Shown: piece by piece, positions 7,552 through 64,000 of the stretch
How the letters are laid out: each line of letters begins with the position of its first letter
Position numbering within the stretch: the stretch's first letter is position 1
IMG/VR virus record: IMGVR_UViG_3300027759_003166
Direction: 5' to 3' (one strand)
DNA from: a virus
Taxonomy: Duplodnaviria; Caudoviricetes
DNA length: 64,000 nucleotides
Notes under the pieces: model-generated
Seen by the model: the letters and a program-made list of their open reading frames with translations, nothing else
Told to the model about the DNA's origin: nothing
Databases searched by the model: none
Made by a program: the position numbers and the translations under genes

Positions 7552-7852
7552 CATGTGGAGAGGATGGTTTATTGGCAACTTTGAACCAACTGTATTAAAA
7601 ACTAAAGACTTTGAAGTAGGTATATTAACACACAAGAAAGATGAAGTATGGCCAGAACATTATCATGCCATTGCTACAGAATATAATGTATTAATAAGCG
7701 GGCACATGACAGTATGTGGAGAAGAACTACATTCTGGAGATATTTTTATTATAGAACCCAACGAAATAGCAAGACCTGTGTTCCATGAAGATTGTATAAT
7801 AGTATGTGTAAAAACACCAAGTGTACCAAAGGATAAGTATGAAGTTTTTTAG
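7529..7852 (+). CDS. Cupin (RmlC-like) protein
   Basis: RGWFIGNFEP, HYH...EYNVLISG and GDIFIIEP match the cupin motifs. Confidence 0.75.
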   Translation: MKIQKLDNMWRGWFIGNFEPTVLKTKDFEVGILTHKKDEVWPEHYHAIATEYNVLISGHMTVCGEELHSGDIFIIEPNEIARPVFHEDCIIVCVKTPSVPKDKYEVF

Positions 7853-9032
7853 AAACAGAGAAGAAATAGATATAAACAAATACTTCATAGCAACATATGT
7901 TATGAAATCGTCAACTTCACTTAAAGATGCTGCGTGGAATCTTGCTATAGGTCAAAGTGTAGGAAATCCTAGTGTTCGTAATGAATGGGAAACTGATGAC
8001 TTATTTGAAAATCACAGTTGTATCATTTTAGGTGATGAAAGCTATATGTCCACACAGATCTCGGGTATTGTAGAAATTGCATTTCCTGTAGCAAACATTG
8101 ATTGGGATACAGACGGAATTAGTCAACTTCTTTGCCACCTGATGGGAGGACAAGTTGATATTGATATTATTAAAAAATGTCGTTTGATAAAACTTGAATT
8201 GCCAAACAATGTTACTCAGCATTTTTTAGGTCCTAAATTTGGAATTACAGGTTTTAGACAATTCACAGGACAATACAATAAACCATTATTTGGTGGTATC
8301 ATTAAACCAAAGATTGGAGTTTCTCCAGAAGTATTGCTAGAAATGGTTAAGCAAATGGTCGATGGTGGAGTTGATTTTATTAAAGAAGATGAAATCATGA
8401 GCAATCCCGTATGTGCTCCATTGGAACATAGGGTAGACATGATTGCTAACTATCTAGCCAAACAAAGTCGTAAAGTTGTATTCTGTCACACCATTAATGC
8501 AGATCCACATATTATTATAGACCGTGTTAAGCGTGTACATGAGTTAGGTGGTAATGGAGTTCACGTTAATGTGTTTAGTGGAATTGGTGTGTATAATAGT
8601 ATTCGCAAATTAGATCTACCTTTATATCTACATTATCAAAGTAGCGGAGCGAAATTACTAACTGATGTAAATCACAGGTTTAGTATTAGTTGGCCAGTAA
8701 TGTGCCAGTTAGCAACACTAATGGGTGTTGATACTATACAAACTGGCATGGTTGGAGGATATAGTAATGATGATCCAGTGGAGATTAAAGAATGTTTAGA
8801 AATATTAAGAGCAGGTAATACTGTGCCTGCACTTAGTTGTGGAATGCATCCCGGATTAGTTAATAAGGTCACCGAACTTGCAGGGTTAGATTATTTGGCC
8901 AATGCAGGTGGAGCAGTTCATGGTCACCCTGGCGGTACAGTTGCAGGTGCGCGAGCCATGAGACAAGCAATAGATAAAACGCATAATACAGAATATGATC
9001 AAGCAATTAACAAATGGGGATTAATAATATGA
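7839..9032 (+). CDS. RuBisCO-like protein (form IV, RLP)
   Basis: IKPKIG (K175/K177), GGVDFIKEDE (K201/D203/E204), LSCG and AGGAVHGHP. The R295, H327 and K334 equivalents are replaced, so it is not a true carboxylase. Confidence 0.9.
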   Translation: MKFFRNREEIDINKYFIATYVMKSSTSLKDAAWNLAIGQSVGNPSVRNEWETDDLFENHSCIILGDESYMSTQISGIVEIAFPVANIDWDTDGISQLLCHLMGGQVDIDIIKKCRLIKLELPNNVTQHFLGPKFGITGFRQFTGQYNKPLFGGIIKPKIGVSPEVLLEMVKQMVDGGVDFIKEDEIMSNPVCAPLEHRVDMIANYLAKQSRKVVFCHTINADPHIIIDRVKRVHELGGNGVHVNVFSGIGVYNSIRKLDLPLYLHYQSSGAKLLTDVNHRFSISWPVMCQLATLMGVDTIQTGMVGGYSNDDPVEIKECLEILRAGNTVPALSCGMHPGLVNKVTELAGLDYLANAGGAVHGHPGGTVAGARAMRQAIDKTHNTEYDQAINKWGLII

Positions 9033-21017: not shown

Positions 21018-22919
21018 TTATACAGTCTCTTGAACGTCGGCTGCAACCACGCCATCTTCCGCATCTTTTTTAGCCTGTTCTTCAGCTTTTTTAGCTGCTT
21101 CTTCGGCTTCGTGCTTCTTGGCTGTAATTGGACCCATTGCTTGATAAAGTTTTGGAACGCTGTCTTGAATGATTTTAGGATCATCACCTTTGATAGCATC
21201 ACGAATTGCCTGTGCTGCATCGTCGGCATTGGCCTTTTCTTCTTCAGTAACTTGATCACCAAACTTATCAATATCTGCTTGGAATTCATTTAGGGTAGAT
21301 TCTGCGCTATTACGTGCTTCAATAAGCTCACGTAGTTTCTTATCTGATTCGGCATTAGCTTCGGCGTCTTGAACCATACGTTCAATTTCGTCTTTGCTAA
21401 GTCCGCTATCGGATTTGATAGTGATCTTATTTTCTTGGCCGGTGCCTTGATCCTTGGCACTAATATTCATAATACCATTGGCGTCAATATCCAAAGTAAC
21501 TTCAATTTGCGGAGTACCTTTACGTGCTGGAGGAATTCCACTTAATTTAAATTCACCAAGCAATTTATTGTATTGAACAAAATCACGCTCTCCCTGGAAT
21601 ACTTTAATATCCACAGCAGGTTGATTGTCTTCGGCTGTACTAAACACTTGACTATGTTTGGTAGGAATGGTTGTATTCTTTTGAATCAACTTAGCCATTA
21701 CACCGCCCTGTGTTTCAATACCAAGACTTAGTGGAGTAACGTCCAGCAATAGAACGTCTGTACGTCCACCACCTAATACGTCACCCTGGATAGCAGCACC
21801 AGCGGCAACTGCTTCGTCTGGGTTAACATCCTTACGTGGTGCCTTGCCGAATAGTTTCTCAACTGTTTCGATAACCTTAGGCATACGTGTCATACCACCG
21901 ACTAAGATAACTTCGTCGATGTCGCTGGCAGTAACACCTGCATCTGCCATAGCAGTTTTGCAAGGCTCAATACTACGTTGGATCAACTCGTCAACAAGCT
22001 GTTCCAACTTCGCACGAGTGATCTTAACATTCATATGTTTAGGACCACTTGCGTCTGCTGTGATGTAAGGCAAGTTAACATCTGTTTGTGCTGAACTTGA
22101 CAATTCAATCTTAGCTTTCTCAGCAGCTTCTTTCAAACGCTGGAGTGCCAACATATCCTTCTTAAGATCAACGCCGTTGTCTTTCTTGAATTCATCGACC
22201 AAGAAATCCATAATACGTTGGTCAAAGTCTTCACCACCTAAGAATGTATCACCGTTAGTAGATAGAACTTCAATTTGTTTGTCGCCATCAACGTTGGCAA
22301 TTTCAATAATAGATACGTCAAATGTACCACCACCTAGGTCATAGACAGCAATCTTACGATCACGCTTGTCTGCTTTATCCATACCATAGGCAAGAGCAGC
22401 GGCAGTTGGTTCGTTGATAATACGTAGAACTTCAAGTCCTGCGATTTTACCAGCATCTTTAGTTGCTTGACGTTGCTGGTCATTGAAGTAAGCAGGTACG
22501 GTAATAACTGCCTGTGTAACTTCATGTCCAAGATAGTCTTCAGCTGTGAGTTTCATCTTACGAAGAACTTCGGCTGAAATTTGTGGAGGGGCAAGTTCTT
22601 GATCATTTGCACTAACCCAAGCATCACCATTGCTGGCTTCGATGATTTTGTAGGGCATTAGATCAATGTCCTTCTGCACAGCTTGTTCTTTAAACTTACG
22701 TCCAATTAGACGCTTGGCTGCATAGATTGTATTTTTTGGATTAGTAACTGCCTGGCGTTTTGCACTGGCACCTACAAGGATTTCATCGTTAGCATAGGCA
22801 ATAATACTAGGAGTAGTTCTTGCACCTTCGCTGTTTTCGATTACTTTGGGGATACCGTTTTCAATAACGGCTACACATGAATTGGTTGTACCGAGATCGA
22901 TACCGATTACTTTACTCAT
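21018..22919 (-). CDS. dnaK: Chaperone DnaK (Hsp70)
   Basis: [25 protein letters not shown] and GGMTRMP. Confidence 0.97.
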
Positions 22920-37201: not shown

Positions 37202-37204
37202 GAT

Positions 37205-37226
37205 AAAGAAACCCGCCGAAGCGGGT
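37205..37226 (-). terminator. Rho-independent terminator after tmRNA
   Basis: ACCCGC-TTCG-GCGGGT-TTCTTT; identical to 42325-42346. Confidence 0.85.
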
Positions 37227-37229
37227 CCT

Positions 37230-37478
37230 TGGTTGTTTTGGTAATAAGGTATTTCCTACCTCACCTTAGCCTCAAGCGGCTATGGAATATAAACTATCGT
37301 TTGCCTTTAGTTTGATTTGCTTGATTTACGGTCATCGCCTACCGAGTTGCCGTCGCTGACTATTTGCCCAATCGATTACCAGAGCACCCCCACCTAAATA
37401 TAAATTATACACTTAGGTGGAGGTGGCCGGATTCGAACCGGCGTCTTGAACACATCATCTTTGAAGGGATTACAACTA
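37230..37478 (-). ncRNA. ssrA: Circularly permuted (two-piece) tmRNA
   Basis: Minus-strand order: acceptor piece ending GCCGG-TTCGAAT-CCGGC-CACCTCC-A-CC (to 37416), a 24-nt spacer, then a coding piece starting GGGGGTG (37391). G3-U70 pair present. Tag ORF 37304-37272 reads ANDSLYSIAA*. Confidence 0.88.
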
Positions 37479-37487
37479 TTCTTTTAT

Positions 37488-37802
37488 TTAACGCTGAAAG
37501 CAATTACGCTCACGATAAATTTGTCCATCTGGAGTCTGGATCTCTTTCCAATCAGTACAAACAGTTGTGGGTTGTTGAACAATCACAGGACGTTGAACAA
37601 CTACCGGTTGTTGTTGCACTACGGTTTGAGGTTGATTAGCATTGGCAATAACGGCTCCTGCAATTCCACCGAGTATCAACGGACCTACCCAATCATTGTT
37701 GCGTTCAACAATGACAGTACGTTCTGGATAACGATGATGCCATTGGGCGTTTGCTGCCGTGGCTGCTACCAACATAGTAATTACCAATACAAGTTTTTTC
37801 AT
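37488..37802 (-). CDS. Secreted hypothetical protein with a glycine-zipper-like segment
   Basis: Signal peptide, GPLILGGIAGAVIA, a QP-rich linker and two Cys. Confidence 0.7.
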   Translation of the reverse strand: MKKLVLVITMLVAATAANAQWHHRYPERTVIVERNNDWVGPLILGGIAGAVIANANQPQTVVQQQPVVVQRPVIVQQPTTVCTDWKEIQTPDGQIYRERNCFQR

Positions 37803-56089: not shown

Positions 56090-56506
56090 TTAGAGAGCCA
56101 CACCACGTACATCAGCCGCTACTGTAGTATTAGCATTATCATATCCCTGTAACGCACCTGTACTTGTAGCAACAGCAACAATTGCTTGTTGACATGCTAA
56201 TGGAAATAGTTCAGTATCATCATCGCCATCATAATCTTGTTCAACAAATGCTCCACCTAACGCTGCCACAGCAATGGTCAATGTTGTACTACCACCTGAA
56301 TATCTAGGAGTACCTATAATTTCAATGCTGGCTAGTTCAGCGATAGCATCTAATGCTTGTACTACTGGGCTTTGCACACCTGCTAATCTACCTAACTTTG
56401 CTGTTAGATTTGCACTTGGAAATGTGATTGTTATAAACTGTAATGTAACACCGTTTTTGTATACTGGTGCAATTAACGTTTCATTTGTTTTTGTAATTCC
56501 TGTCAT
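56090..56506 (-). CDS. Small Ala/Gly-rich late (probably virion) protein, paralog 3
   Basis: Start moved to MTGITKTNE (GGAG SD; TAAATA at 56529-56534). APVYKNGVTLQF matches paralog 2. Confidence 0.65.
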   Translation of the reverse strand: MTGITKTNETLIAPVYKNGVTLQFITITFPSANLTAKLGRLAGVQSPVVQALDAIAELASIEIIGTPRYSGGSTTLTIAVAALGGAFVEQDYDGDDDTELFPLACQQAIVAVATSTGALQGYDNANTTVAADVRGVAL

Positions 56507-56546
56507 TGTAACTATCTCCGATTGTTTATATTTAGCAAGTTTACTC

Positions 56547-56576
56547 AAAGAAAAAGGGAGTTATAAAACTCCCTTT
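56547..56576 (-). terminator. Rho-independent terminator
   Basis: AAAGGGAGTT-N4-AACTCCCTTT followed by TTCTTT. Confidence 0.8.
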
Positions 56577-56596
56577 AATATCGCTAACTTTTTAAA

Positions 56597-57040
56597 TTAT
56601 AGTACCATTGCTGCTACTGTACAGCTAGCAAGATTTACACCTTGTTTTGTACCGCCGTCGTTTAATAGACGTTCTAGATAAGCAGCGAAAGCTTCGCTAT
56701 TTGTACCATCCCACCTAGCTGTACCAAAGTCACCACCAGCTGCTGCTACTGCGAAACGTACATCACGTCCAACACCACCACCAGAACTTTCTCTAGTGCT
56801 CAAATCTGAAATTGTACCTACCATTTCAATAGAACATGCCTGTTGAATAATATGGAATGCTGTCGAAACTGGACTCTTAGCCTGCTCTGCTGTATATGTA
56901 CCAGCAAGAAAACCAGCATTATCTGTAGTTAATTTAGCAGCTACTGTGCTTGGGAATGATAATACAAACCACTGTAGTGATACACCATTTTTGTAAAAAG
57001 GTGCTGCTGTTTGTGCATTTTTGTTAATTAATTGTGCCAT
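56597..57040 (-). CDS. Small Ala/Gly-rich late protein, paralog 2
   Basis: APFYKNGVSLQWF...SPV...SIEMVGT. Confidence 0.65.
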   Translation of the reverse strand: MAQLINKNAQTAAPFYKNGVSLQWFVLSFPSTVAAKLTTDNAGFLAGTYTAEQAKSPVSTAFHIIQQACSIEMVGTISDLSTRESSGGGVGRDVRFAVAAAGGDFGTARWDGTNSEAFAAYLERLLNDGGTKQGVNLASCTVAAMVL

Positions 57041-57110
57041 TTTAAAATCTCCTAATCTTGTTTTTTAAGTTTCCCTATGAAACTTAGTATGTTTTTATTT
57101 ATCACTTTTG
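57036..57110. repeat. 75-bp direct repeat, copy 1 (promoter, hairpin and SD leader)
   Basis: Near-identical to 57551-57625; contains TAAATA, AAGTTTC-ATAGG-GAAACTT and TAGGAGA on the minus strand. Confidence 0.9.
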
Positions 57111-57113
57111 GCC

Positions 57114-57142
57114 AAAAAGAAAGGGGATATAAATCCCCTTTC
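57114..57142 (-). terminator. Rho-independent terminator
   Basis: GAAAGGGGAT-N4-ATCCCCTTTC followed by TTTTT. Confidence 0.8.
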
Positions 57143-57159
57143 AATGTATCTACTTAATA

Positions 57160-57555
57160 TTAAGCAGAGAATGTACCTGCGTTGGTAAGTGTTGTATAAG
57201 CATTTACAGTCAATTTATCAACTGTAGTAATACCTGCTAGAACAACCGCATCTTTCAATGCACCATATGCACCAGTAGTAATTGCACCGCCACCAGCATT
57301 GAAGCTAGGACCGTCAACGATACAAGTGAAGTAGTGAGCGTCTGTACGAGCACCAAGCCATACAATGCTACCTAATGATTCTACAGCTTCAACAGCTTTG
57401 GAATAACCACCCTTGGTGATTGCGCCAGTTGTGCCGTTAACTGTATCTGCTGTGAAAGCAGCAGAATCAGAATCAGTAATTTTAATTACTAGTGGGGAAT
57501 AACCATAAAATGCACCTGTTGATACGGTGCCGTGAACTCTATTAATTGTCGCCAT
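57160..57555 (-). CDS. Small Ala/Gly-rich late protein, probable divergent paralog 1
   Basis: MATINRVHG; similar size and composition to its neighbours, and the same leader as 56597-57040. Confidence 0.65.
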   Translation of the reverse strand: MATINRVHGTVSTGAFYGYSPLVIKITDSDSAAFTADTVNGTTGAITKGGYSKAVEAVESLGSIVWLGARTDAHYFTCIVDGPSFNAGGGAITTGAYGALKDAVVLAGITTVDKLTVNAYTTLTNAGTFSA

Positions 57556-59302: not shown

Positions 59303-59707
59303 TTAGATTGGGTGGCTACGTAAGAACTCGGGATATTGCTTGTTAAAGTGTCTCATTATAACACCGGCAATTTCGTGTGCTTGATTTTCTTCAGGACTAC
59401 CAGTAGCACCGCTTTGATCATTAAGCTCATTTCTAATATCTTGTCTATAATGTACAAGTTCGTGAGCAACGGTCCTAAGTATATCCACAGGATGGCGATT
59501 GAGTATAGCCACGTGTAAAATTTTATCTTCATTGTCATACATACCAAAACTTGGTTGACTACCCGATTGTACTTCTGGTTCAAAGTCCATCTTAGGTAGT
59601 CTATCAATCTCCAAGATTTCCATAGCCAGGGGAAGAAACTTCTTGAACATGTCAACAAATGTCGCTTTAGATTCTCGGCCTTCAACTAATAACTCTGTGA
59701 TCTTCAT
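59303..59707 (-). CDS. HExxH zincin-like protein
   Basis: LRTVAHELVHYRQ...ENQAH; MKITELLVE start. Confidence 0.65.
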   Translation of the reverse strand: MKITELLVEGRESKATFVDMFKKFLPLAMEILEIDRLPKMDFEPEVQSGSQPSFGMYDNEDKILHVAILNRHPVDILRTVAHELVHYRQDIRNELNDQSGATGSPEENQAHEIAGVIMRHFNKQYPEFLRSHPI

Positions 59708-59713
59708 AATATG

Positions 59714-59820
59714 TATTTAGTGCCGGTGACTTTATCCGGCTCCTACTACGCGAGGAAGTTCAATTGCGCGGACGCCTTTAGCCGTGGCTTCCAACGGAAC
59801 CTAAGGTAGGTGTTCTATAC
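59714..59820 (-). ncRNA. Structured intergenic RNA candidate with a SAM-V-like pseudoknot core
   Basis: GC-rich. Stems GAAC/GTTC, CCGT/ACGG, CGCG/CGCG and GCCGG/CCGGC; loop CAATTGAACT-TCC can pair with GGA-TAAA. Confidence 0.35.
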
Positions 59821-59884
59821 TGGACTATATGGATTACAGGGTCTATCTGTACCATCGTCCTCCGGGTATACCGGATAATCATTA

Positions 59885-60700
59885 TCAGTCGGCTGATTTG
59901 CATTTGGCTCGTTTTGCATTAGTTAGTGCTCCAAAATCTACAGGCCATTCTTGGCCGGGTGCTATTTCTTTAGCGTTAGGTGGAAAAGCATACTTAACGC
60001 CGGATTCTTGCATAATATTAGCAATCGGTTGACGGAACTTAGTTAAGTCGTTGCCTAAGTTAACATATGGTTTTGTATGGGGGAATCTCCAACCCAAAAC
60101 TTCACCTGTTGCATTGTTGATTACAATCTTATAGTAGCCGTGTGGCACAATAACACCGTTGCCGATAGCAGTATCACCTTGTCCGTATATAGCACCAACG
60201 TAGATTGTAAATGGTTGATTGAGTTGTACTGCCCAACCACGTACACTTGTTTCTAATAGTTTCCAAATTCCTCTGTTTAATGATCCATGTTGTGGATACA
60301 TATTAGTCATTAAGAAACTTTCGTACTCGACTTGTTGTGTCCAGCTTAGATCACCATCTGGTGCGCCGTGGCCTTTGTCATAGCCTGTGCCAGCATAGTC
60401 ATCTGGTCTAGCACCTGTACCGCCTAGGCTTTGGTCAGCAACAAACGCATTGGTACGTGGAAAGCAACCTAGTGCGTTTTGTGGTAGCAATGTGTATGCT
60501 ACGTATACAGGAATCTTTACAGGAGCATCATATGCTACCAAATATGCTTCACGGCAAATAGGTTGTGCTGCTCGTTGTGTTTGTGCAAAGCCGTATGGGC
60601 TATGTACCTGACATGCCTGTGGTGGTAGTGGAGCCCGTTGTTCCCAGGCCTGAGCCAACCCTGCTAGGAATAGCAGAGCAATGGTTAGTAGTTTTTTCAT
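59885..60700 (-). CDS. Secreted DNA/RNA non-specific endonuclease (NucA/EndoG family)
   Basis: Signal peptide, YDKGH, TNMYPQ...LNRGIWKLLE and VPHGYYKIV. Confidence 0.9.
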   Translation of the reverse strand: MKKLLTIALLFLAGLAQAWEQRAPLPPQACQVHSPYGFAQTQRAAQPICREAYLVAYDAPVKIPVYVAYTLLPQNALGCFPRTNAFVADQSLGGTGARPDDYAGTGYDKGHGAPDGDLSWTQQVEYESFLMTNMYPQHGSLNRGIWKLLETSVRGWAVQLNQPFTIYVGAIYGQGDTAIGNGVIVPHGYYKIVINNATGEVLGWRFPHTKPYVNLGNDLTKFRQPIANIMQESGVKYAFPPNAKEIAPGQEWPVDFGALTNAKRAKCKSAD

Positions 60701-60731: not shown

Positions 60732-63700
60732 TTATCTACGCACGAAATGATAGTCGCCATCTGGACCGTTATTGCTAAACAATCCTAAGCAATCGTAGCC
60801 CAGTGAATCCATATACTCAATTACAATATCTTTTAATGGAGCACCTTTGTTATACTCTACTATCTGCAATTCTAATATAATATGTTTAGCTGTTTTAATA
60901 GTTTCTTGGGCACCTTTAAGAACATCCATTTCTGCGCCCTGTACATCCATTTTAATTAGATCTGGTGGTGGATATTGATTAAGGCTTACTACTGCATCTA
61001 GTGCAATAGTTTTAAGTTTTCTAACATACTTGTCGCTGTACAAAGTTGCTGCTGCTGGTTGAATTTCAGGATTTTCTCTGTAATAGCTATTGCCGCCCGG
61101 TGCTTCATTATTTTGATAGAAGTCTACTTCTTTACCACTTTGATCACTTAATACTCCTATAAAGTATTTTATACCAGCTTCTTGATATAAGAATTCGTGT
61201 ACATCTGCTGCTTCAAATGCTATAACTTCCGCTTCAGGCCAAATGTTCTTAACTCTATCTGTCCAATGTAACACACATGCACCAATGTCATATATAACCT
61301 TTGGATTTTCTCCTTGTTCTTTTAATTTAGTCAAGTACTCTATATGTGCAGGTGGAAATGGATATGGATCTCGCAATTCTCTTAGAAATTGTTTAATGTC
61401 AACTATATTTGAATGTGTGTCAATTGCTGGTATATTTGTATCTACACTAAATGTAAAACTTCCTATATGTCTACATAATATAGTAGGATCTGCCCAAATT
61501 TTAAATCCACGATCTCGTGCCTTAATACTGAAATCTACATCTTCGGATACTGTATCGTTGATACTTATAGCACTATGATATTTAAATTGGGGATATCCTA
61601 TAGTTCTCAATACTTCTGCTTTGACTAAAGTACATCCAAATCCGCAACCTGCTACTTCTACTAAAGATCTGCCTTTTAATTTTCCATAAGGCATATTAGT
61701 TACACCACCAGTTGATGTATGTTCGTATATTTCTAAAATATGTTGACCCGGCTTACGTTGTATATATAATCCACTTACCACATCTTTGTCGTGTGCTAAT
61801 AATTTAGCCAACGTATCTGGTGCAAATGCAATATCACTATCTACAGAAAATAGATAATCAAATCCATTTACTACCCAACTTGCTATTAAATTACGTACTT
61901 GATCTATATTATATCCATAGAAAAATTGAAACATAGTTTCATATCCATCAGGCACAATAAGATCATAGATACTTTTAAATGTATCTGGTTCAATATTCTT
62001 AGCTGTTGGAATTGCTATAAGTATTTTTTTTTTAGGTTGAATCATTTTTTGTACTATCTCTCTTGCATTTTTATTTTGTTCTTCTGCATTAACTTTGTAA
62101 TCATTTAACGGACTTGTATCATTATAATTATAAACTACATCAGTTAAACATTTTACTCGATTGGGATCTGCTTCCTCTATCAATGCATAAAATACACTTC
62201 CATCACCGCCGGCCTTATACCAATTACCATTACTATCTTTAAATGAACTATCATCAATATTGTTTAACAATGACTTTTTAAATGTTCTTAAATGCGTATA
62301 AGGTAAGATCCAGTTGAAATGATGATCTCTATAGGATTTACTTTGTTTAATTGCTTCAGGATATGGTTGACTAATTAATGGAATGTTATCAATCATGCTC
62401 CAACAACTACCATAGGTAAATTCCGTAGTACCATCATAGATAGAATTATAATATGAGAATATAGTATTATCATTAATAAGACTATCATCACCATCTATTA
62501 ACATAACAATGGCGTTATCATCCTTGACTATTGATCTTATGTTTTGTATTTGATTTCTAACTGCGCCTAAATTCTCCGTATTTGAAATAAGTGTGAACTT
62601 ATTTCTAATATCTGCTGGCATCGGTCTTAGTGTTTCTATTATAACTTCTACGGTGTTATCTGTACTAGCATCATCAATTAAAATGTGCTCATAGTTATCA
62701 TAGTCCTGTGTAGCCACACTAGTTATACAACGTGAAATGTAATCAGCACAATTATAGAAAGGACTGACAACAACTATCTTCTGTTCATTACCTGCTCGAT
62801 AGTTTTCCAATTCAATGGTATTAGTAAACCTACGATTCCATATCTTATGTACTCTATGATTAATCTTTGATACTCGACGATAGCTGTCTTTAGATAGATA
62901 TTTGCCCAGACGTTGGGCCATAAACTGTTTCCACTGTAGGGCAACACTATCCCATCCTGCGATGTCCTTGACAATATTACAGTAGTATTGTTTTTGTTGA
63001 TGTAGATATCTATTGTGGTATGCTTGTACAGTCATTGCCACAAACTTATTAATTTGTTCAGTGGTATTAATATCAGGGAACAAGCCATTAGGCTCTATAG
63101 AATAATCAATATGATAACAGGCACCTTCTAGAGCAATTTCTTCCAATGCTCCAAATCTACAAGTAAGTATAGGAGTATTGTAGAGTAAACTTTCTAATGA
63201 TGATATACCAAACGTTTCAGGAAATGCCGAAGGGTAGATCATAAAATTTGCCAATGTAAGTATATCAGCAATTTCTCGTTGAGGAATAACACCTGTATAT
63301 TCTATACCAAGTTCCGTATTACGTGGATCAGCCGCCATCCTGCGCCAATCTTTTTCTTGTTGATCTGGTTCAGAACTTTCACTAAATCTATAATAACCAC
63401 CTATAACTTTTAATCTAGCACTAGGTATCATTGCTTTTATCTTGGGCCAAATATGATTCACTAGTGGGATCATACCTTTGGTTACACTGGCATTATATAC
63501 AAATAAGTTAGGATCCTTAGCTTTGATATCAATTTCTTTTCTGTAATTTCTAGCACCATTGCGTGTGATAAACATCTTACGTTTTAGTACTTCAAAATTA
63601 CGTCTACGTCCATGATGGCAGTTAGCCACATAAGTTAGGTGAAAGTCACTGAGTGTGAATATATCTGTAATACGATTAGCTACAGCAAGTTCTTCAATGA

Positions 63701-64000
63701 TATTATCGCCGAGACAGAATGTATCATGCATCCACAATATACGCATAGTAGCTTTAGCGAGTATCCTATCATAAAGATTCATATCATGGAATGGGTATGC
63801 TCTACTATCACCAAGTCTTTCGTAGTCTTTAGGATCAGTAAATGGGATTACAGTTCTTGAGCTTATAACAATATCAAAAACATGGTCTTTGGCTAATTCA
63901 GTAAGTGTACGATATTCAACACCTTGATAATTTCCAGGATGAGCATGATCTGTATTACAGTTATTGAATACAGTTACATCAAAACCAATTTGGGCCAATT
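60732..64000 (-). CDS. Multidomain GT4 + GT2 + GT2 + FkbM methyltransferase, 5'-truncated by the window edge
   Basis: YPSAFPETFGISSLES (GT4); VVSPFYNC...DDASTD and IDGDD (GT2); FSVDSDI...GCGFG (GT2); YDIGAC...LIKMDVQGAE (FkbM). Confidence 0.85.
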   Translation of the reverse strand, partial: LAQIGFDVTVFNNCNTDHAHPGNYQGVEYRTLTELAKDHVFDIVISSRTVIPFTDPKDYERLGDSRAYPFHDMNLYDRILAKATMRILWMHDTFCLGDNIIEELAVANRITDIFTLSDFHLTYVANCHHGRRRNFEVLKRKMFITRNGARNYRKEIDIKAKDPNLFVYNASVTKGMIPLVNHIWPKIKAMIPSARLKVIGGYYRFSESSEPDQQEKDWRRMAADPRNTELGIEYTGVIPQREIADILTLANFMIYPSAFPETFGISSLESLLYNTPILTCRFGALEEIALEGACYHIDYSIEPNGLFPDINTTEQINKFVAMTVQAYHNRYLHQQKQYYCNIVKDIAGWDSVALQWKQFMAQRLGKYLSKDSYRRVSKINHRVHKIWNRRFTNTIELENYRAGNEQKIVVVSPFYNCADYISRCITSVATQDYDNYEHILIDDASTDNTVEVIIETLRPMPADIRNKFTLISNTENLGAVRNQIQNIRSIVKDDNAIVMLIDGDDSLINDNTIFSYYNSIYDGTTEFTYGSCWSMIDNIPLISQPYPEAIKQSKSYRDHHFNWILPYTHLRTFKKSLLNNIDDSSFKDSNGNWYKAGGDGSVFYALIEEADPNRVKCLTDVVYNYNDTSPLNDYKVNAEEQNKNAREIVQKMIQPKKKILIAIPTAKNIEPDTFKSIYDLIVPDGYETMFQFFYGYNIDQVRNLIASWVVNGFDYLFSVDSDIAFAPDTLAKLLAHDKDVVSGLYIQRKPGQHILEIYEHTSTGGVTNMPYGKLKGRSLVEVAGCGFGCTLVKAEVLRTIGYPQFKYHSAISINDTVSEDVDFSIKARDRGFKIWADPTILCRHIGSFTFSVDTNIPAIDTHSNIVDIKQFLRELRDPYPFPPAHIEYLTKLKEQGENPKVIYDIGACVLHWTDRVKNIWPEAEVIAFEAADVHEFLYQEAGIKYFIGVLSDQSGKEVDFYQNNEAPGGNSYYRENPEIQPAAATLYSDKYVRKLKTIALDAVVSLNQYPPPDLIKMDVQGAEMDVLKGAQETIKTAKHIILELQIVEYNKGAPLKDIVIEYMDSLGYDCLGLFSNNGPDGDYHFVRR

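Follow-up and report, generated by a model that had tools for sequence, protein, structure and literature searches.

A pseudoknotted, modular RNA family of uncultured phages that shares the SAM-II/V skeleton and is unlikely to bind SAM

The DNA analysed here, a stretch of 64,000 nucleotides that we call the window, seems to come from a large freshwater phage, with genes for ribonucleotide reductase, DnaK, glycosyltransferases and methyltransferases. The element described below lies between a nuclease gene and the gene of a small HExxH protein, in the following arrangement (window positions).

59885–60700, minus strand: upstream gene, DNA/RNA non-specific endonuclease (PF01223, E 6e-35)
59815–59919, minus strand: microprotein ORF of 34 codons that overlaps the nuclease stop; its variation is dominated by synonymous changes and its stop position is conserved
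59722–59814, minus strand: the whole structured RNA, 5' module M1 and 3' module M2a, about 94–95 nt, delimited by homologues and pairing
59799–59811, minus strand: M1 hairpin P1, loop ACCUU (59807–59803), judged by contiguous-pair counts against shuffles
59782–59797, minus strand: M1 hairpin P2, CCGU/ACGG with G-N-N-G in the loop, 91% paired, two pairs with two-sided change
59771–59777, minus strand: AGGCGUC strand, inferred partner of the P1 and P2 loops, partly fixed by the search patterns
59749–59770, minus strand: M2a stem P4, CGC (59770–59768) with GCG (59751–59749), third pair formed in 63 of 64 sequences with 6 pair types
59767–59760, minus strand: mini-hairpin with AAUU loop inside P4, inner pair formed in 64 of 64 (CG 42, AU 20, UA 2)
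59759–59757, minus strand: ACU inside P4, invariant in the alignment and fixed by the search patterns
59756–59752, minus strand: pseudoknot 5' strand UCCUC inside P4, pairing with G..AGGA
59741–59746, minus strand: pseudoknot 3' strand, G, bulged U (59745) and AGGA, five pairs, each formed in 64 of 64
59722–59740, minus strand: terminal hairpin P5 with a conserved A-rich loop (59735–59727), 5 of 5 pairs covarying, 100% paired
59714–59719, minus strand: TAAATA, a T4-type late-promoter-like box by sequence, 6 nt ahead of the next ATG
59303–59707, minus strand: downstream gene, 134-aa HExxH protein with a weak PHROG metallo-protease match (E 4.8e-5)

The TAAATA box stands between the RNA and the next gene in this phage, and from what is known of T4 we take it to be a late promoter; the HExxH gene is probably carried on its own leaderless transcript. 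The pattern shows no enrichment window-wide, and several of its matches are located at ORF starts. Elsewhere in the window we observed a permuted tmRNA of betaproteobacterial type (37204–37527, minus strand, 150 bits) that ARAGORN missed, a RuBisCO large-chain-like protein (7839–9032, plus strand; PF00016, E 1e-36) within a glycosyl- and methyltransferase cluster, and a full-length DnaK (21018–22919, minus strand) with about 68% identity to proteobacterial-type DnaK. Three adjoining small genes at 56090–57555 (minus strand) look similar in sequence, and the one that was scanned had no PHROG match, while 60732–63998 (minus strand) encodes a fused glycosyltransferase (GT1, GT2) and FkbM methyltransferase protein.

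The span that drew attention to this locus, 59714–59880, was described in an initial annotation as GC-rich, and its G+C content is indeed 49.7% (55.9% in the RNA part) against 36.7% for the 64-kb window; the strings named there were all found on the minus strand. The span was also taken to be intergenic throughout, which holds only for 59722–59814, the structured RNA, as the remainder (59815–59880) is the tail of the microprotein gene and lies within the 34-codon ORF. The microprotein has a conserved core of 20 residues, rich in Pro and Asp, and among 51 distinct DNA versions of this 20-codon core the differences from the consensus number 89, 64 and 463 on codon positions 1, 2 and 3, that is, 463 of 616 on third positions. 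As this stretch is coding sequence, the first hairpin proposed for the locus, TCCGG/CCGGA, is a by-product, its CCGG/CCGG pairing being kept in only 12 of the 51 homologous versions, and hairpins in 59815–59880 were rejected as RNA structure because the coding sequence explains them. The microprotein stop codon lies 7 nt ahead of the P1 loop. Its starts vary, it often overlaps the nuclease stop in another frame, some copies have no in-frame ATG, and in one locus (L291) it is free-standing behind a TAAATA box.

Homologues of the RNA were gathered via the two flanking proteins and then with DNA patterns, which partly impose the invariance of several anchors; a loose DNA pattern returned mostly chance loci, which were rejected. 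The family comprises at least 157 distinct sequences from uncultured phage DNA, found only in viral and metagenome contigs. AAUU is kept in 24 of the 29 protein-anchored members, for which it was not required. One exact pattern run against GTDB cellular genomes gave 8 matches, none backed by our model R1 (best E 0.14), and among isolated phages no real match was obtained. The RNA occurs in single copy: model R1, in which the window sequence is included, detected no second copy in the window, and near-complete genomes carry one copy (of M2a or of the M2b form described below) or none. No Rfam family was placed at the element when the window, the region (E≤10) and 18 homologous loci were scanned, and six diagnostic 16-mers were absent from the full texts searched. 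The family is therefore absent from Rfam 15 and from the full-text literature searched; the large motif surveys of 2017 and 2023 may list the RNA, unnamed, in their supplements. The one metatranscriptome that covers the region has contigs on both flanking genes and almost none over the element, and such assembled contigs show neither absence nor RNA ends.

Folding of the single sequence was not significant on either strand (z = −1.04 for the flagged span); as the folding energy is no better than chance, support for the structure is drawn from the homologues. Covariation among them is strong. In an alignment of 64 sequences (about 26 effective) 95.4% of the cells are paired in the proposed structure compared to 30–40% in slid controls, and 288 two-sided changes were observed compared to 77.6 in shuffled alignments and 21–47 in slid controls, neither control fully removing the relatedness among sequences. 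An unguided MI-APC ranking returned proposed base pairs for all of its top ten column pairs. The alignment has 50 G-U and no A-C pairs, indicating that the RNA is encoded on the minus strand, and this asymmetry rules out a DNA-level or plus-strand structure. On comparative grounds, then, 59722–59814 is a real, tightly knotted structured RNA, and with strong covariation and no Rfam match the fallback offered by the initial annotation, a novel non-coding RNA motif, is the part of its interpretation that stands.

The fold of M2a is established by these data: an H-type pseudoknot with a bulged U and a mini-hairpin, followed by the terminal hairpin P5. The CGC/GCG stem seen at the outset is P4, 99.5% paired, its third pair with 32 two-sided changes in the 64 sequences. 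All five pairs of the pseudoknot helix change on both sides (7–34 two-sided changes per pair) and 100% of their cells are paired, and the bulged U (alignment column 75) is invariant. The TCC of this helix had been paired with the GGA just before TAAA, a pairing that we reject as it is formed in 46% of cells (first pair 4 of 64) compared to 100% for UCCUC/AGGA. The GCCGG/CCGGC hairpin that overlaps this GGA does exist (100% paired, all five pairs covarying), and yet it is constitutive and not an alternative: since the true partner of UCCUC is the upstream AGGA, the pseudoknot and the last hairpin coexist, and the competing-hairpin switch once suggested is not seen. The AGU of the P5 loop may in addition pair with ACU, where neither triplet ever varies, both being fixed by the search patterns. 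At L057:2359-2489, L104:3324-3459 and L108:3320-3450 M2a occurs in long variants, which have a longer linker and one additional hairpin.

The main proposal of the initial annotation was a core like that of the SAM-V aptamer. In the SAM-V crystal structure G21 and A48 sandwich SAM, which pairs with U47 and has U8 behind it; the nucleotides that bind it are U8, U19-A49, U20-A48 and G21, and the binding site is a triplex of U:A.U triples that are more than 97% conserved (PMC6061858). As in SAM-V and SAM-II, the phage RNA is an H-type pseudoknot with a short first stem and an unpaired U in the second helix near the junction (here P4 and the 5-bp helix), the commonest variant, with 90 of the 157 members listed, has an 11-nt crossing loop similar to the third strand of SAM-V, and the phage carries methyltransferase-domain genes. 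Unlike SAM-V, the phage RNA has one base pair and not two between bulge and junction, a second helix of five freely covarying pairs, a crossing loop with its own mini-hairpin, a 3' linker of 2–3 nt where SAM-V has a hairpin and an A stack, additional modules on its 5' and 3' sides and no link to methionine genes. It also lacks the SAM-contacting bases and the U:A.U triples: among the 157 members listed an equivalent of U8 was found in none (partly set by the search pattern, and likewise in none of the 29 protein-anchored members) and the U19-U20-G21 strand of PMC6061858 in none, and the equivalents of U19-A49, U20-A48 and G21-C46 occur singly in 10, 15 and 16 of these 157 and together in 0. 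As the would-be third-strand positions 6 and 11, which flank AAUU, pair with each other in 64 of 64 sequences, no free third strand is left.

The Rfam SAM_V model (RF01826, gathering cut-off 41 bits) gave no match at E≤10 in 59400–60200, and in five carrier records its best match was 15.7 bits, with matches in G002, G005 and G006 away from the element. SAM-V riboswitches, which bind SAM and reject SAH, precede methionine or SAM genes and have the ribosome-binding site within the pseudoknot. Here the flanking genes are not methionine genes, as had been remarked at the outset, and no methionine or SAM gene occurs among the scanned neighbours, whose downstream members fall into at least 34 unrelated clusters. 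We conclude that the phage RNA shares the SAM-II/V skeleton without being a SAM-V member; on sequence grounds SAM binding is unlikely, and a SAM-V riboswitch or a free SAM-binding RNA is very improbable.

A pseudoknot skeleton of this kind could also serve an aptamer or riboswitch for a metabolite other than SAM. The invariant bulged U beside the helix junction and the ACU conserved in the crossing loop speak for this, and about a third of the members (54 of the 157 listed) are placed in the leader of hsp20; against this, the pairs that flank the bulge vary freely, the downstream genes share no pathway, and no conserved terminator or competition for a ribosome-binding site was found. A riboswitch would have to come with an expression platform and with downstream genes of one consistent pathway, neither of which was found, and we regard this explanation as quite unlikely.

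The 5' module, M1, contains the hairpins P1 and P2. At the position of P1 a GAAC/GTTC hairpin had been drawn, and a hairpin is indeed there, in a register that differs between members: P1 has a mean of 3.35 contiguous pairs compared to 2.98 ± 0.04 in 1000 shuffles (maximum 3.10), and its stems are longer in loci that carry M1 only. The CCGT/ACGG hairpin is P2 and is paired in 91% of cells of the 64-sequence alignment; in some members an optional hairpin is inserted between P2 and AGG. Pairing of CCU in the P1 loop with AGG is possible in 96.9% of cells and shows no covariation in that alignment, and GNNG of the P2 loop is compatible with CGUC only in part. As these loop pairings, like ACU/AGU, come without two-sided covariation, we infer rather than assert both M1 pseudoknots, P1 loop and P2 loop with AGGCGUC.

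No spacer separates M1 from M2a, and a search with one linker form turned up no M2a that lacked the U of M1, so the two modules may fold as one unit. M1 itself is clearly modular. It occurs alone, with a stop codon on one side and an intrinsic terminator on the other (L652, L666, L673, L715, L748, L660 and L663; in L660 the nearest stop codon is 21 nt off), and ahead of a third structured module, M2c (L675, L697 and L700, the last of which also has a group I intron at 1890–2501). A second RNA family, M2b (GGCGGCUGCUGCC ... AAAGUGAGC; loci L526-L645, e.g. L568:5463-5515, plus strand), with 111 distinct copies, lies nearly always behind an M1-type head, 26 copies with full M1 and 105 with its CCUUAG core. 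M2a and M2b were never together in one locus among the loci fetched, and the M1-linked modules had no Rfam match in the loci scanned. The same 5' head, alone or on three 3' modules, suggests a modular RNA toolkit of freshwater T4-like and jumbo phages.

The genes around the RNA are unrelated. A same-strand ORF lies upstream in 135 of 148 members, and neighbour proteins fall into at least 48 clusters upstream and at least 34 downstream, including RegA, Hsp20, two nuclease families and a desaturase, unrelated to each other. Two settings recur, one with nuclease, microprotein, RNA, TAAATA and late gene, as in this window, and the other in the regA-hsp20 interval of T4-like phages. Other members have the RNA behind a TAAATA box or another pseudoknotted motif and ahead of the hsp20 leader hairpin, a hairpin also found in cyanophages. 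In 87 of 153 members (57%) no more than 15 nt separate the P1 loop from a stop codon, compared to 5.5% of random positions, a null that takes no account of short phage intergenic regions, and in 77 of 153 the loop lies 3–9 nt past the stop. Past P5, TAAATA follows within 20 nt in 58 of 156 members, a U-rich tail in 23 and a separate terminator in 6. Upstream of M1, 29 of 153 members also carry GGGAUGGGAA followed by an apparent H-type pseudoknot (motif loci L203, L255, L374, L431 and L446); most of these members are in regA-hsp20 intervals.

The spacing from the stop codon, the M1-only copies between stop codon and terminator and the U-rich tails would all suit a cis-acting element of the mRNA end that blocks 3'-to-5' exonucleases or stands in for a terminator, and so stabilises the upstream mRNA or affects translation termination. 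However, the hsp20 leader has many copies, some of them right behind a promoter-like box, and these are not in a 3' UTR, the M1-only copies already have a terminator, and a plain hairpin would suffice without so many conserved loop bases; we consider such a role rather unlikely. As the leader copies are left unexplained by a pure 3'-end protector whereas an autonomous small RNA fits both placements, we favour, at a probability of roughly 40%, an autonomous, nuclease-resistant, protein-binding small non-coding RNA of large aquatic phages that is trimmed from late transcripts.

Such an RNA would be carried along when strong, mostly late, promoters are transcribed, as part of a 3' UTR just past a stop codon or of the hsp20 leader, and host nucleases would trim the transcript down to its compact knots, leaving a stable RNA of about 95 nt. 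M1 would be the shared head for folding and end protection. M2a would be the working part, with conserved unpaired bases (AAUU, ACU, the bulged U, the A-rich loop) for a protein of host or phage to bind; it might, for instance, be a decoy that draws off a nuclease or defence protein. The covariation, the minus-strand wobble bias, the independence of context, with both stop-proximal and promoter-proximal placements, and the single copy per near-complete genome are consistent with this, as are M1 alone before a terminator or before M2b or M2c, the lack of an expression platform, and the promoter-like box of the next gene that often follows directly after P5. On the other hand, the tight stop-codon spacing fits a cis role on the upstream mRNA or genome compaction equally well, two related genomes that are 95–96% complete carry neither the M2a nor the M2b form, no transcript or RNA end was seen in the assembled contigs and no binding partner is linked to the RNA, and the possibility that M1 and M2a fold as one unit also speaks against a separate head and working part.

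The known small self-cleaving ribozymes (HDV-like/theta, twister, pistol) are compact, multi-pseudoknotted and independent of context, may carry an optional peripheral hairpin, and are common in phages. The phage RNA is alike in its size, its nested pseudoknots, its dispensable hairpin between P2 and AGG, its conserved unpaired bases and its indifference to gene context, and the few terminators after M2a (6/156) would likewise accord with a small processing ribozyme of a new class, by which late polycistronic transcripts would be cleaved between genes. We nevertheless hold this to be unlikely, as Rfam ribozyme models gave no match in the window, the region (E≤10) and the homologous loci, the RNA occurs in single copy and we saw no conspicuous cleavage site; to our knowledge, its strand order does not fit HDV, twister, pistol or hammerhead, and its helix order and catalytic residues do not map onto HDV-like/theta, twister or pistol. 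By eye, we know of no mapping of ykkC, cobalamin, fluoride, the group I core, HDV, twister or pistol onto the phage RNA. A broader notion, tentative and one that we doubt more than we believe, is that a new class of functional RNA has M2a as its catalytic or ligand-binding core, either a self-cleaving ribozyme or an aptamer in which the SAM-II/V skeleton serves another ligand. This core would be docked on M1, a general-purpose head to which these phages join at least three different payload modules.

In flaviviruses, exoribonuclease-resistant RNAs form a knotted module just past the stop codon and head downstream structured modules. M1, which likewise heads further modules just after a stop codon, is like them by analogy and unlike them in that there is no sequence or model match; moreover, the betaproteobacterial type of the tmRNA suggests a host from a group that seldom has 5'-to-3' exonucleases.

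The family is large and well covarying. Its RNA, of about 95 nt, is short enough for direct synthesis, and both minimal and extended forms of it occur naturally. A new ribozyme or aptamer class, if true, would be notable, and a decoy RNA, if true, would add to phage counter-defence; for now it joins manA and wcaG among the orphan RNA motifs of phages. These two (RF01745 and RF01761) are structured RNA motifs of T4-like cyanophages with unknown function, manA being reported before ibpA/hsp20 genes (PMC2864571). The present RNA, also a structured RNA of aquatic T4-like phages, has a terminal P5 loop that by eye resembles that of manA, and differs from both in size and helix order. Membership in either was rejected: RF01745 matched in 0 of 5 carrier records at E≤10 (positive controls 184 and 97 bits), RF01761 had no match in the window or the homologous loci (positive controls 92 bits), and, conversely, model R1 had no match in manA and wcaG loci. 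In Pelagibacter phage HTVC008M (L520:1501-1687) we observed a sub-threshold, full-length manA-like match of 25.9 bits, possibly a divergent manA RNA.
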